Assembly (NCBI GenBank): GCA_965371515.1
Contig: CBDUYR010000025.1
Location: forward strand, 1 to 36,438
Length of the DNA: 36,438 nt
Reading direction: 5' to 3'
Source: an uncultured bacterium
GTDB lineage: Bacteria > Krumholzibacteriota > Krumholzibacteriia > Krumholzibacteriales > Krumholzibacteriaceae
Positions 3,001-18,000 of this stretch are shown here, one piece after another. Position 1 is the stretch's first letter, and each line of letters begins with the position of its first letter. The position numbers are program-made.

Positions 3001-6000
3001 GTGGATCTGGGATTACAATGTGATTGTACATACAACTGATGGGTTCCCGAGTAGCCCCGATGAATTCAGGGATTCGTTGAAGTCAGCCATAGCGGATTAT
3101 GCCGCTGAGGGGGTGTTCTACTTTCACCTGATCGGAGATGCCAACGATTGGCGCGAATTCGACGGCGATTTGACTTCATCATTATGGGTAAACAGCTGGG
3201 AACAGATAAGGCTGAATTATTTGGCAAGCGAATATCCTGCGGGGGGTCAACCAGAGAATGATATTATTCCAACATTCGCTATTCCGGACACTCTTCCACG
3301 AGATAGAAATACAGCTTATTATGCTCCCTATATCTTCAGCGACATGCCGTTCGCAGATATTAATGACGATTCCATTCCAGATGTTGTCGTTACCCGCTGG
3401 CCGGTGAATTCAGCATCCGATGTCATGCGGCTGGCGTTGAAGATGCAGAATTACAATCGTGGTTATAATCCCGAAGACCAAATATTCAAAGTGGGGTTTT
3501 TTGTTGGGGACGTAGATCATGATGGAATAGGAGATGGTACATACGCACGAGATGTCGCATGTAACGTAGAAGCTGTATTGCCGTCAGCACAGGAAATAGT
3601 ACATCTATATGAATCAGAATGCATAATCGATGCTGATCGAAATATAGCAGCGGTTGATTTGTGGAATAATGAGCGTCCAGAGTTATTGGTAATCATCTCC
3701 AGTTATTCAAACCGCTCGTGGCCTGGTAACTTCTTCGACCAGACATTGCTCAGTGGTTCATTTCATATGGGAATGATTGAGGATGACAACGGACACACGC
3801 CCCTGATAATAGCAGGGTCATGTGGTGGAAGCGATTATGCGAGAACCGAAGATCCGGATTTTGGCACACCAATAGCTGAGAAGTTTCTATTTGCGGAAGC
3901 CAAAGGGTCCATAGCTTGGGTTGGGCCAACAGCAGGAAGTTGGCAGGAAGGCAACAGCATCATCGTTCAATATATAATTGAAGAAATATTTTCAGATCTT
4001 TCGCGCCCGATGGCGGCATCGTGGTTAGCTGCCATGCAACGCATTTGTAACGATTGCCAAAACCAACGAGATATTCTTCAAACGGCTAAAGCGTATATGT
4101 TTCTTGGTGATCCTCTTTCTAGACTCAGTCATGTATTAGACACTATTACTGACGCGAACAAGGAATCAGAGCATCTTTGTAAATTAGCGCTTGAGCAAAA
4201 TATTCCTAATCCGTTTAATCCAAGCACGAGTATTTCATTTACACTCCCCAAAGCAGATTTAGTAAGTATAAAGGTGTATGATGTAACAGGAAAGCTTGTT
4301 AAGGCATTGGTGGACAATAAACTCCCTGCAGGAAGACATGTTGTGAACTGGAAAGGCTATAACGATGCAGGCGGCACGGTCGCTTCTGGCATCTACTTTT
4401 GTAGGATGAATACATGTGAGGGCAGCAAAACTATTAAAATGGTTATTATTCGGTGATTATATCCTTCCACAAACGCCAACCTTCAAGAGGAGCAAGAAAA
4501 TGACCTGGAAACGAACGGCTATCGTTCTATTGGCAATCTCACTCCTTTTATCGATAGCACATGGATGCAGCGAGGAAAAGAAGGATCAGAGGTTTCCATC
4601 AGAGATCGAAACGGCCATCAGTGACAGCGTCATGTCTCTTGTGCGAGAAGGTAAGGTAACCTCGCGCGACCAATTCGACGAACAGCGGAACAATCTCGCG
4701 AAGACCTGGATCAATGAGGTGAGGACCGACAGCCTCACAAGATCAGACAGCTTGACCTATGGGTCACTCCTGTTCAGGTCGGGGAACCTGGAAGCAGCGA
4801 AAGCGATATTGGGACACATAAGCGAGGGCAGTGACAGAAAGGCCAGGAGTGCCTATGAGAGCTTGATCACCGTGGAGATCGAGACGGGTAACGGTGAGCG
4901 TGCCGAAGAGCTCATGAAAAAATACCGAGAGCTTTATCCACCAAGCCCGGACGACGCATTTTACCTTTATGAACAAGTCGAGAATCTGGGTGGCAGGTAT
5001 AACGATATGAACCGCCTCGACGATGCGATAAGGGTATATCTGGACGAATTGTACTCGCGGCCGTTCGATACGCTATGTGTCTCGTTCAGGTTGACCGGTG
5101 ATCTCATGAATGTTTGTCAGGAAGCCGGCAGGCTCGACGTATTGAGGGAAGTTCTAGGGAGAATGAAGCAGGGCCTTATGATGGGTCTCAAGGGATATAA
5201 GGGTCAGGTTGTCTGTACGGATTCCACGGAGCGAGCTGAGGATCACATTTCTCAATCCTACGCATTGTATATAGACAACTGCGACCAAATGATGGCGATT
5301 GTTGATATGGTCGGCAAGCCGGCGCCAGAAATCGGCTTCACTTATGTCTATAATGCGGATTCGACTTCAATGCTGTCTCTGGATGATTTCAAGGGACAGG
5401 TGCTGGTGCTCGATTTCTGGAATACCTGGTGCATACCCTGCGTCATAGGATTCGAAGAGGTGAAGACCCTACTCGCTGATTATGGAGACAAGGGACTGAA
5501 GGCCGTCGGAGTCACTTCTTTTCAGGGTTATTACCGTGATATAGATACGGGTGAGATGGAAGAGGAACTCGATGAGCAGAGGGAGATCGAGATTACCGGT
5601 GAATATATCGAGAAACGGGGGATGACCTGGCCAATCGGGATTGGCGACCAATCCATATTCAAGAAGACTTACAATATATTATCGATTCCGACATTCGTGA
5701 TCATCGATAGAGAGGGTAATGTCAGGTTTGTCCATTCAGCAATCGGTCAAATGAAACAGAAGCGCAGGATTATCGAGAAGCTGTTGTGATATGATTTATT
5801 GTACTGCGAGAGTATTGATCTGATACCTGTCTCTGCACGGGGGAGGCGGCCTCAGCCGCCGTGGGCGAGGTGGAAGAGTCCGACCTTCGAGCCGTCGGGC
5901 ACGGTTTGGGTGCCGTAATCATCTTCTGGAACGAGCGTTCCCTCTATTGTCACCGTTATAAGCGCGTAATCGTAACCCATCGCGTCGAGCACATCCTGGA

Positions 6001-15000: not shown

Positions 15001-18000
15001 AGGTGCGGTGAATCCTGGGATCAGGCTCTATCTCTACGACGGTGGGAGCGAGGGGCTGTTCGGCGACGGCAAATGGCGCCTGCTCAAGTCGGTAGATGAA
15101 GAAGGATCGATCAGAAAAGCGGCCGAAAAACTGGGCAGAGGATACCGTAAGGCCTGGGGCGACATCAAGAGGACCGAGAGCGCCCTCGGCCGTAAAATTG
15201 TCAGAAAGACGAGGGGAGGGCCGACAGGCGGTGCGACCGAGCTCACCGAGTTCGGCAGGGAACTGCTCAAAGGATGGCAGAAGTACAGGGAGGCCGTCAT
15301 GAAGGGGATGGACGGAGCGTTCGAGCTATATCTCTCCGGCCTTCTCGAAAGGAGCGAAGATGAACACTGAAGAGTTCGGAAAGATCATAGAAGAATCGTC
15401 GATCGAACAGGACGGCAGGAAGAGTCTGCCCTGCGCGAAGGCCTTCGAGTTGTCCGAAAGATACAGTATTCCGCTGAAGGATATCGGCGCTTACTGCAGC
15501 GACAACGGGATCAGGATAAGTATGTGCCAGCTCGGCTGCTTCGAGTGAGACTGACAGCGGATGAAGACTATCGTCATATCGGGAGCGAGATCGAACATCG
15601 GCAAGACGACGCTGGCGGAGAAGATCCGCCAGTTGCTTCCCGGAAGTGTGCGCATAAAGCTCGGGCATGGGGAACTGAAAGAAGATATGGATGATGTTTT
15701 CTATGATGCAGGGACCCCATATGAGCGGATAAAAGAGGAAAATCCGCAAGCGGATTTTCTGATTATAGAGAGCAACAGGATACTGGAGGAGATCGAGCCC
15801 GACCTGGCGATCTATCTGCCCGCCGACGAGCCGAAGCCCTCCGCGGCGCTTGCAGAGGCGAAAGCCGATCTGATCAGGGGATGTGAGGGTGGATCCGACG
15901 CGGCGGAGCATGTTGCCGGGAAACTCGGGATAGATGAACGGGCCGCCGCAGAGATCGTAAGACTGGTATGCATGACCGGCGAGACGGAAGATGGATCATG
16001 AAAAAGAGTAATGGGAAAAAGGATTTCGGCCGCAGGAAACTAATGCCGTTCGACGATGTGATGGACATAATACTGGGTTCGGCGCGCCTGCTTGGCAGTG
16101 AAGAGGTGGACCTCACCGATGCGGCGGGCAGAGTGCTCGTCTCCGATATCGTCTCCGACATCGACATGCCGCCGTTCGACAAGTCGGCTATGGACGGCTT
16201 CGCCTGCAGGAGAGCTGATCTCGATCGCCCGTTGAGGATCGTCGAGACGGTTGCGGCAGGCCGGATTCCGGAAAAGAAGATCGGCGAGGGCGAATGCGCG
16301 AGGATCATGACTGGTGCGGCTGTGCCCGGTGGGGCGGACACAGTCGTCATGGTCGAGGACACCGGGGAAAAAGACGGTATCGTCACGGTGGTACGCCGCA
16401 GTGGCAGCAGTAACATATGCCTTCTCGGCGAGGATCTTCGCGAGGGGGATACGGTCCTGAAAAAGGGATCTCTGATCCGTTCTTCGGAGATTGCAGTCCT
16501 CGCAGCGACGGGCAGCGCGAAGGCGCCGGTCGCGGTCAGGCCCACTCTCGGGGTCGCTGTCACAGGCGACGAGCTTGCCGAACCGGGCCAGCCGCTGAAC
16601 GCGGGGATGATACGGAACTCTAACGGACCGCAGTTGATGGCGCAGGCGGCTGAAACCGGTCTGCCGGCGAAGTATCTCGGCATCGTACCCGACGATCCCG
16701 GCGCCGTTCCGGAGTTGATCGAACGCACCTCTGGAGAGATAGACGTATACATATTTTCCGGCGGTGTATCGATGGGCGACTATGATTTTGTTCCCGGAGG
16801 ACTGGAGGAGGCAGGATTCGAGCTGCTTGTGCATGGAGCGGCGATAAAGCCGGGTCGCCCCCTTCTCTTCGGCAGGCGCGATGACGCCTGGGTGTTCGGG
16901 CTTCCGGGAAATCCCGTTTCGGTGTTTGTTCTCTTCGAGATGATCGTCAAACCGTTCTGTTTCCGATTGATGGGTCACGATTACAGGCCGCTGGAAGTCG
17001 CGGCGCGTCTCGAGAGGGATTTCACGAGAAAGGATGCTGTACGGACTGCGCATGTGCCGGTACGGCTGACGCCCGACGGATGGGTCCGATTCATCGAGTA
17101 TCACGGTTCGGCACACATCCATGCCTACACACGGGCGGACGGGATACTTCGCATACCTGCGGGCGTCGAGTCACTGAAGAAGGGCGAGGAGGTCAGGATC
17201 GTCGTTCCTGGACCGCCGCGTCTCACGGATGGAATGAGATAGTGATGAGAGACAAGATCGGAAGAGAGATAAACTATCTCAGGGTGTCGGTGACCGACAG
17301 GTGCAACCTCAGATGCGAGTACTGCATGCCCCCCGAAGGAATAGAACTCAAGAGCCACGGCAACATGCTTTCCTACGAGAAGATCGCGGAGGTCGTTCGT
17401 GCGGCGGCCGGCCTCGGGATCGACAAGGTCAGGCTGACCGGGGGAGAACCGCTTGTGAGAAAGGGGTTGTCGGGCCTCGTTCGGATGCTGAGAGAGATCG
17501 AAGGCCTGGACGAGATCTCGATGACGACGAACGGGATCCTGCTCACCCTGCAAGTGGCCATCGAACTGAAGGAGGCGGGGCTCGACAGGCTCAACATCTC
17601 GCTCGACACACTCGATCCGGCCAGGTACCAGAAACTGACCCGCGGAGGGGACGTGACCGATGTCATCAGGGGGATCGCGGCGGCGCAGACGGCGGGATTC
17701 GAGGGGACCAAGGTCAACATGGTCGTATCTGCGACCGAGTCGCGCGAGGATGTCGACAGGATGCGGTCATTCTGCGCGCGGGAGGGACTTGTCCTGCAGA
17801 CGATAAACAGGTTTTCCCTCGTAAAGCGGACTGGCGAGACCGAATCCCCGCACGACTTCGACAGGCCGCTTCCCTGTGACAGGTGCAACAGGCTGAGGCT
17901 GACTGCCGACGGATACCTCAAACCCTGTCTCTTTTCCGACATCGAGATAAAGGTCAATTTCGATGATATCGAGGAAAGTATCAGGAAAGCGGTGGATGCC

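Follow-up and report, generated by a model that had tools for sequence, protein, structure and literature searches.

What kind of enzyme results when the domains of a WOR-family aldehyde oxidoreductase are distributed over two adjoining genes, with an electron-bifurcating (Bfu) module lying between them? The question is raised by two genes in the window (the whole stretch of 36,438 nucleotides that was analyzed, from an uncultured member of the Krumholzibacteriaceae). According to open reading frames and Pfam, P0001 (8674-11880, minus strand, 1068 aa) has the order AFOR_N-BfuC-BfuB, and P0002 (6676-8673, minus strand, 665 aa) the order BfuA-AFOR_C; an ORF check of the window shows that the two abut stop-to-start in the same frame. 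Pfam detects AFOR_N at 34-247 (E 8.6e-46), two stretches of 2Fe-2S_thioredx (the best at 282-424), Complex1_51K at 621-793, NADH_4Fe-4S at 912-996 and Fer4_21 at 1015-1066 in P0001, and Fer2_4 at 5-82, Fer4_7 at 133-188 and AFOR_C at 211-651 (E 5.1e-85) in P0002. The survey's finding that the enzyme is cut between AFOR_N and AFOR_C, in abutting genes, is borne out with the same Pfam coordinates. In the host genome, which is 99.6% complete, these are the sole copies of either domain. In a census covering about 4,000 WORs, each sequence had to carry both domains (PF02730/IPR013983 and PF01314/IPR001203) on a single chain (PMC13328260); here they lie on two, which makes the split group invisible to that census.

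The sequences argue for a WOR enzyme with intact cluster ligands and an aldehyde-type second shell, and suggest an aldehyde as its substrate. Domain 1 (P0001 residues 1-250, 11131..11880, minus strand; PF02730) aligns to residues 6-211 of Pyrococcus furiosus AOR (1aor_A), placing the break at the boundary between domains 1 and 2, where practically no residues are lost or duplicated. In alignment with the same enzyme, K104, N121, A226 and R228 fall on the pterin/Mg-site positions, and none of these residues varies among the 36 split and 35 intact rows compared. Domains 2 and 3 (P0002 residues 193-665, 6676..8097, minus strand; from Pfam and alignment) follow immediately on the final strand of the dicluster domain. 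Their [4Fe-4S] ligands C277, C281, C285 and C495 are invariant in all 42 split rows. The second shell consists of T230, E310, E312, Y433 and H454; T230, E312, Y433 and H454 are the equivalents of T243/E313/Y427/H448, the aldehyde-oxidizing second shell of WORs (PMC12096430), and they, too, are the same in every one of the 42 split rows. The traits of BamB/YdhV, loss of the second shell and an extra cysteine metal ligand, do not describe P0002, whose second shell is intact, and 4z3w was not among the eight structure matches to its C-terminal half. As metal we infer tungsten rather than molybdenum, although the presence of WtpA nearby does not prove tungsten use.

A complete BfuABC core between the WOR halves had also been claimed, and in this copy all of its cofactor motifs are indeed intact. 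BfuC (NuoE/HydC-like; P0001 residues ~276-428, 10597..11055, minus strand; Pfam and ligand check) carries the C1 [2Fe-2S] ligands C351, C356, C392 and C396 and has a linker of low confidence on either side (249-265 and 427-443). Of two NuoE-like domains proposed earlier, the first is this BfuC, but the second is the B5 thioredoxin-like domain that opens BfuB. BfuB (P0001 residues ~461-1068, 8674..10500, minus strand; Pfam, with ligands compared to Supplementary Figs 9-10 of the published Bfu survey) has an FMN/NAD domain and the SLBB motif GGPSG, clusters B5 (C472/477/509/513), B1 (C926/929/932/972) and B3/B4 (8 Cys, 1020-1060), and a B2 site made up of C909, C947, H996, C1002 and C1007, with C947 at the variable B2 position. 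FMN, B1, the B2 site, B3, B4, B5 and the C1 ligands, by which the BfuBC core of the Bfu family is recognized, are thus all present. The short BfuA (P0002 residues 1-192, 8098..8673, minus strand; Pfam) has its best match in WorA (9mqx_A, E 5.1e-35) and provides A1 [2Fe-2S] (C38/49/52/68) and the A2 plus A4 dicluster (C133-C143, C174-C184). A1 and A2, the BfuA clusters expected in the Bfu family, are present together with A4 in all 42 split loci, and the A3 motif is absent from this copy and from all of them. When P0002 was modelled as a single chain, its dicluster domain came out at pLDDT <50. Bifurcating beta subunits are marked by extra clusters, A/E plus M at the NAD site, F at the FMN site and GGPSG (PMC7311640), and P0001 has all four marks, with A/M at its NAD site. 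The set of A clusters (A1, A2, A4) and the ES[ST]ALM variant fit BfuB clade 45, the clade of Wor/Bam/Por/Mbh in the BfuB tree, but in bit scores A. woodii HydB (736) lies slightly above WorB (724).

WorABCSL of Acetomicrobium mobile (Wor-Bfu, Class IV WOR; PDB 9MQX; PMC12318220, PMC9304861) likewise has a WOR site wired to a BfuABC core. Its BfuA also has A1, A2 and A4 and lacks A3, and its WorB is 54% identical to the split BfuB in structural alignment (TM 0.90 by target length), with the ESSALM FMN-site variant common to both. In the split form, however, two chains share the WOR, one part being fused to BfuC and the other to BfuA, BfuC is fused to BfuB, and the predicted stoichiometry is 1:1, not 3:1. 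Unlike WorA, P0002 has neither zinc finger nor adaptor helix, and its dicluster runs into AFOR_C. Class IV, Type 2 Wor-Bfu enzymes have five subunits (WorL, S, A, B and C, WorS being a polyferredoxin), whereas this locus has two genes and no WorS, and the nanowire is therefore absent. Since the WOR halves stem from another, single-chain clade and match A. mobile WorL weakly (E 2.8e-16), the likeness to Wor-Bfu appears convergent, and the split WOR is probably not the reduced descendant that its earlier description as a minimal version of the five-subunit enzyme implied. Type 1 Bfu enzymes (FeFe-HydABC, Fdh-Bfu, Nfn-Bfu, F420-Bfu; PMC9304861) resemble P0002 in having the catalytic domain C-terminal on BfuA, feeding the core through A4. 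They differ in that the split WOR needs a domain from the BfuC chain to make its catalytic unit whole: the BfuA chain carries domains 2 and 3 with the catalytic residues, domain 1 sits on P0001, and both ends of the Bfu module are consequently tethered. The Bfu survey lists no Type 1 Wor (PMC9304861). The claim that the architecture is absent from the described Bfu types agrees with the supplement of that paper, where every Wor entry is a five-subunit Type 2 enzyme. The split WOR is not in the 2026 WOR classification either, our literature search found no description, and passages from papers on Asgard, Hydrogenedentota, NfnABC and E. limosum do not describe it. It is apparently an undescribed, compact version of a known five-subunit enzyme. 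Pyrococcus furiosus AOR (PDB 1AOR) shares fold, second shell and cluster ligands with it, but is a single chain, uses ferredoxin only and is distant in sequence.

Our preferred reading, to which we assign a probability of roughly 65%, is that the two genes encode a two-chain, WorS-less aldehyde:NAD+/ferredoxin oxidoreductase. P0001 and P0002 would assemble 1:1, with AFOR_N of the former closing onto AFOR_C of the latter to give one WOR site that holds the W-bis-pyranopterin between the chains. Electrons from an aldehyde oxidized at this rebuilt site would travel within P0002 from W through the WOR [4Fe-4S] cluster to A4, A2 and A1, without a WorS wire, and would then enter the B1-FMN-C1 site of P0001, where NAD+ reduction may be coupled to ferredoxin reduction via C1 and B3/B4, as in WorABCSL. 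The endergonic step has not been demonstrated even for WOR1 (PMC12096430).

The spread of this architecture was examined in the 80 best loci, of which 42 are split and 36 retain the parent gene intact, the other 2 being fragments (L068, a contig-end fragment within the intact clade, was excluded from split counts, and L052 from the trees). The split loci belong to 14 named phyla. Homologues with PF02730 and PF01512 on a single chain, already noted in the survey, make up 120 of 120 among the matches listed. No cultured host occurs among the 42 split loci or the named protein matches listed, and none of 258 plasmid matches covers 80% of P0002. Members of the split family are labelled NuoE, NuoF or HndC in databases. 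For AFOR_C, AFOR_N and BfuB alike, the split loci form a single clade with support 100, and the split arose once among the sampled loci. The parent clade consists of single-chain WORs of ~720 aa (Class I/II-type; Bacteroidota, Bacillota, Chloroflexota and Bipolaricaulota), including those of Fervidicella metallireducens, Anaerosolibacter carboniphilus and Desulforadius tongensis, with 57-62% identity over AFOR_C, ~47-58% over AFOR_N, and identical catalytic residues. In contrast to the split WORs, they are uninterrupted and without NAD module, and nine of their loci have an adjacent polyferredoxin, compared with 0 of 42 split loci. No characterized member of this clade was identified, the best solved match being P. 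furiosus AOR (E 2.5e-54), and NCBIfam returned no family above cut-off for three intact relatives.

The earlier description as a two-polypeptide enzyme holds for this copy, but not for the original state. Of the 36 split loci that could be scored, 15 have three genes (AFOR_N-C / B / A-AFOR_C), as do the basal rows; judging by this distribution, the two-gene state is derived, C and B having fused later, and the three-gene form is older. A divided first gene in L009 is probably a frameshift, the near-identical L082 being whole. Searching with AFOR_C for longer proteins gave one unrelated protein from 2804 candidates, which speaks weakly against a single-chain form. One candidate for such a form, an open frame of 1785 aa in G068, was rejected: it proved to be a GC-rich upstream frame, the real upstream gene lying in a different one. 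Read-through of the stop codon is not a general feature of the family, since the P0001- and P0002-type genes lie in the same frame at only 3 of 40 loci. As origin we suggest that a clade-45-like bfuCBA cassette was inserted once, in frame, into the linker between domains 1 and 2 of a single-chain WOR.

Among the scorable split loci, 17 of 36 have an NAD/FMN module that is altered or eroded and fall short of the marks of bifurcating beta subunits (PMC7311640), and the exact NAD-site motif is absent from 61 of the 120 best protein matches. Altered or lost are NAD/FMN motifs, B5, C1 or B3/B4; the WOR residues, A1/A2/A4 and mostly B1 are kept. This amounts to 10 changes scattered over the tree, at least 7 of them forced by starred branches. 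The split family is therefore not uniformly bifurcating and, as erosion is repeated, tolerates loss of bifurcation; the proposed widespread bifurcating family has the marks in this copy, but not throughout. Such losses, in relatives that keep their WOR residues, speak for the alternative that survives best, namely that the enzyme is active and uncoupled, reducing ferredoxin or NAD+ independently, and that the inserted Bfu module persists mainly as a scaffold or wire that is trapped: with an essential WOR half fused to either end, it could not be excised. Bifurcation is not required for aldehydes to reduce one or the other carrier (PMC12318220). We nevertheless consider this rather unlikely: this copy retains all bifurcation marks, dN/dS against two relatives is ~0.05-0.12 (0.046-0.115) for all 8 modules, and purifying selection, among this copy and the relatives nearest to it, is equal on Bfu modules and WOR halves.

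A second alternative keeps architecture and coupling and changes the reaction, either to confurcating acid reduction (NADH and Fd(red) yielding aldehyde) or to oxidation of one particular compound or of something other than an aldehyde, with phosphorylated aldehydes and sulfonates as examples. The parent clade is uncharacterized, its cluster motif CxxxCxxxC is one residue longer than in P. furiosus AOR, and WORs with other substrates exist (PMC13328260), all of which favor this idea. That no gene of a substrate pathway is conserved next to the 42 split loci also speaks for it, whereas the absence of a recurring alcohol dehydrogenase or other pathway gene there speaks against it. Given the intact canonical aldehyde second shell, we regard this alternative as quite improbable. 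Directly downstream of P0002 lies a ThiF-family adenylyltransferase (6049..6675, minus strand; NCBIfam NF006395 above cut-off), followed by a ThiS/WorX-like sulfur carrier that ends in GG (5852..6052, minus strand; TIGR01683 above cut-off), and these families are found in 32 and 30 of 42 split loci, respectively. On the other side, an AT-rich divergent intergenic region of 209 bp (11881..12089), with a strong Shine-Dalgarno sequence upstream of P0001, leads to the tungstate(/molybdate) ABC transporter WtpABC (12090..14982, plus strand; NCBIfam profiles). WtpA passes TIGR03730 (306 vs 243 bits) and is just under NF003196 (351 vs 355); WtpB and WtpC, below cut-off, are named by best matches. A ModE-like regulator (14987-15370), two small unnamed ORFs (15360-15548, 15561-16001), MoeA (15968-17242) and MoaA (~17245-18057) follow on the plus strand. 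The ThiS/ThiF, transporter and MoeA genes had been listed correctly as neighbors; MoaC, a MOSC-domain protein and a MogA/MoaB-like protein are real as well, but lie outside the range first given for the locus (21720..23048, plus strand), past an unrelated block, as the rest of the pterin cluster. Rfam over the window gave no family at gathering score, Moco riboswitch included. The host genome has 4 POR_N matches, 1 RnfD/NqrB match and 4 small ferredoxin candidates, which we count, like the adjoining WtpABC, ThiS/ThiF and moa genes, in favor of our preferred reading. Five RNA-labelled runs matched only 0.05-0.10 of query words, contigs in every case, and so give no sign of transcription.

That the locus is an assembly artefact or an insertion-disrupted pseudogene, as the origin of all split loci from MAGs and the lack of any isolate found might suggest, is already refuted by an identical break point in 42 loci of 14 named phyla, by matches to P0002 at E <1e-200 in 27 of 151 genomes of a phylum sample, by dN/dS of about 0.06, and by independent contigs, from two marine-sediment studies, that bridge all three junctions in close relatives.

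With somewhat more confidence than doubt, we see in the split WORs a widespread, hitherto undescribed class of tungsten enzymes, created by insertion of a bfuCBA operon, that would include the smallest bifurcating aldehyde oxidoreductase (two chains, one W per core, no nanowire) and that eroded stepwise in at least 7 lineages. Because the insert cannot be removed, it would decay in place (NAD loop, B5, C1, B3/B4, whole FMN domain). The family may be a clean example of how a whole operon can enter a gene in frame while both halves of that gene go on functioning. As a two-gene 1:1 enzyme, it would be simpler to express and image than WorABC(SL)3. The mechanism of Bfu bifurcation is still open (PMC12318220, PMC11829005); if our reading is true, the naturally eroded relatives would constitute a natural deletion series showing which cofactors coupling needs. 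For uncultured anaerobes of sediments and digesters, the enzyme likely adds a route from aldehydes to NADH and ferredoxin.

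The split WOR of the window is encoded by two minus-strand ORFs that abut stop to start. P0001 (8674-11880, 1068 aa) runs from AFOR_N through BfuC into a full BfuB, and P0002 (6676-8673, 665 aa) from a short BfuA into AFOR_C; Pfam matched the domain coordinates that the survey's finding had assigned to both. The two domains of P0001 that it called NuoE-like are indeed both thioredoxin-like, but the second is the B5 domain of BfuB. The window is one entire contig of the host genome (3.08 Mb, 99.6% complete), in which a tblastn search detected no other WOR half. ThiF and ThiS genes lie 3' of P0002, and WtpABC, ModE-like, MoeA and MoaA genes are divergent from the pair, with genes for MoaC, a MOSC protein and a MogA-like protein further on (21720-23048). 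The moa cluster is broken between moaA and moaC by a minus-strand block of lower GC (18063-21573, about 0.47-0.51 vs 0.58) that encodes SxtJ-like, GDSL-like and carbamoyltransferase proteins. Two small plus-strand ORFs without Pfam match (15360-15548 and 15561-16001, the latter with a P-loop-like start) lie between modE and moeA, and each is kept in 6 of 42 split loci. Lower GC (0.46-0.48) also marks 730-5789 (plus strand), which encodes a peptidase C25/FlgD-Ig protein and a TPR-redoxin.

An AFOR_C scan of GTDB genomes gave at least 594 relatives among at least 601 stretches. The best 80 loci, which were retained, comprise 42 split ones (AFOR_N and AFOR_C on separate genes; identity to the query at least 65%), 36 with an uninterrupted gene of ~720 aa (at most 62%; one has an internal stop) and two contig-end fragments. 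Among these 80, the nearest relatives with a name are MAGs of Ca. Krumholzibacteriota, 95% identical over AFOR_C. P0002 is matched at E <1e-200 in 27 of 151 sampled genomes of the phylum, the window's own included, mostly within its own order. The best AFOR_N homologues had been claimed to carry nearly always PF02730 and PF01512 on one chain, and all 120 listed matches do (63-95% identity, 626-1132 aa; the search covered proteins of 587-1869 aa only). PF02730 and PF01257 are likewise joined in 120 of 120 listed matches to the AFOR_N-BfuC protein of a three-gene locus.

P0001 has the ligand sets of C1, B5, B1, B3 and B4, all five ligands of the B2 site, and all four marks of bifurcating beta subunits (PMC7311640); the Bfu set is complete throughout its three-row clade. 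BfuA has A1, A2 and A4 without A3 in 42/42 split loci, as does WorA of the five-subunit WorABCSL of A. mobile. The AlphaFold models (pLDDT 82 and 74) have HydB/WorB and the large subunits of WORs as their structural matches, with the dicluster domain (A2 and A4) of P0002 not resolved. Bifurcation requires a mobile C1 domain (PMC11829005), and low-confidence linkers on both sides of BfuC would, judging by the model, let it move. A second Bfu operon of the genome (790-6826 of locus L090, on contig C38) encodes a 1299-aa BfuA with Nfn-like FAD and molybdopterin-oxidoreductase domains.

We propose, with a probability of about 0.65, that P0001 and P0002 form a 1:1 heterodimer with the W-pterin site rebuilt between the chains. 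Aldehyde would be oxidised there, electrons would pass from the WOR's own cluster via A4-A2-A1 to the B1-FMN-C1 site, and NAD+ and ferredoxin would be reduced together at the end of this route. As far as sequence can tell, the split form would work like WorABCSL, whose reaction is coupled NAD+/ferredoxin reduction from aldehyde (PMC12318220).

Alternatively, though rather improbably, the activity is uncoupled and the insert scaffold-like. This idea draws on the relatives, in which WOR halves and BfuA are kept but the insert has decayed again and again. The full set is present in 19 of 36 scorable split loci; motifs are altered in 2, and the NAD-site loop is missing partly or wholly from 15. 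B5 is also gone in L006, L031, L034 and L041, C1, B5 and B3/B4 in L007 and L013, the entire FMN domain in L010, L019 and L028, and nearly everything in L037. The NAD motif is kept by 59 of the 120 listed protein matches, and in 33 listed matches below 860 aa, some possibly partial, it is missing along with B5 and B3/B4. Full versus eroded states require 10 changes on the AFOR_C tree (starred branches force at least 7 of them), and the labels are no more clustered than shuffled ones (105 of 500 shuffles as low). With 17 of 36 scorable loci altered or eroded, a bifurcating reading such as had been suggested cannot be extended uniformly to the family. The window's copy, however, keeps every Bfu ligand set and the four marks, and dN/dS against the relative loci L001 and L002 is 0.046-0.115 in all eight modules, the Bfu ones included.

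Another substrate, or another reaction direction, is less probable still. In alignment, T230, E312, Y433 and H454 of P0002 correspond to T243, E313, Y427 and H448 of 1AOR, which make up the second shell in WORs that oxidise aldehydes (PMC12096430, PMC13328260). These residues and the cluster ligands (C277, C281, C285, C495) are invariant in 42/42 split and 38/38 intact rows, and the intact second shell argues for aldehyde. In P0001, K104, at what we take to be a pterin/Mg-site position, N121, A226 and R228 are invariant in 36/36 split and 35/35 intact rows. The Mg ion of 1AOR is bound by N93 and A183 (PMC12096430). C322 of P0002 (0.98) and C87 of P0001 (0.97) are near-fixed in split forms, whereas intact relatives do not conserve them in this way; 21 split-specific positions of this type lie in the AFOR_N half and may mark a new interface. 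Intact Bacillota WORs of the parent clade adjoin DAO, Pyr_redox and ferredoxin genes in 5-6 loci (L044, L057, L067 and L074 among them), which may hint at the substrate of the parent. The 1223-aa protein P0123 of an archaeal MAG joins an intact WOR to an AMP-binding (acyl-CoA synthetase) domain.

An artefact can be dismissed, given 42 split loci, the low dN/dS, and ~94-96%-alike contigs from two marine-sediment studies that bridge the AFOR_N/BfuC, BfuB/BfuA and BfuA/AFOR_C junctions (proof of presence, not of transcription). Split loci, all from MAGs, span 14 named phyla plus 14 unnamed records (43 records, fragment L052 included). The split form is real and widespread, and probably functional.

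Compared with intact relatives, almost no WOR residues are missing or doubled at the break. The N-half, aligned to residues 6-211 of P. furiosus AOR, stops near residue 250 of P0001, and the C-half restarts at residue ~193 of P0002, immediately after the dicluster domain; the alignment of an intact relative to P. furiosus AOR runs across this point. Split forms are one group in the trees of AFOR_C (43/82 rows, SH-aLRT 100 in a quick tree; 100/100 in a careful one with two outgroup rows), AFOR_N (37/73, support 100) and BfuB (36/46, two identical, support 100). They thus appear monophyletic among the best matches to the window's query, which is all that the trees sample; more distant separate origins may exist. 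The two-polypeptide description fits the window and 21 of 36 split loci with upstream genes visible, but 15 are three-gene loci (AFOR_N-C / B / A-AFOR_C), and so are the basal rows of the clade. Since these are basal and the label needs five changes, a bfuCBA cassette must have entered the gene in frame, with C and B becoming joined afterwards, either repeatedly or with reversals. The survey's finding called the enzyme a minimal version of the five-subunit Wor-Bfu; as its WOR halves stand far from WorL of A. mobile, the likeness to WorABCSL would be convergent and not the outcome of a reduction. The closest non-split BfuB relatives among those sampled (L085, 452-9297; L086, 3185-11901) belong to bfuB-C-A operons, behind which come genes for an HdrA-like/MvhD fusion, an HdrD-like protein and a further flavoprotein.

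Type 1 Bfu enzymes have the nearest topology, and PMC9304861 lists no Wor member among them; the split form is also absent from the sections covered of that survey and from its supplement, in line with the claim that it is not among the described Bfu types. Without WorS and with WorL split, it falls outside Class IV WOR as defined. The WorL set of PMC13328260 demanded both domains on one chain, and the split form was not found in the available text or searchable supplement files of that paper, in the available parts of PMC11291895, PMC11406978, PMC11725836 and PMC11829005, or in the full-text literature searched (subscription journals lie outside its coverage). It is apparently unpublished. 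The host genome itself has four POR_N matches, one RnfD/NqrB match and four small ferredoxin candidates, a ferredoxin-linked metabolism that, by gene content, would fit the proposed reaction.
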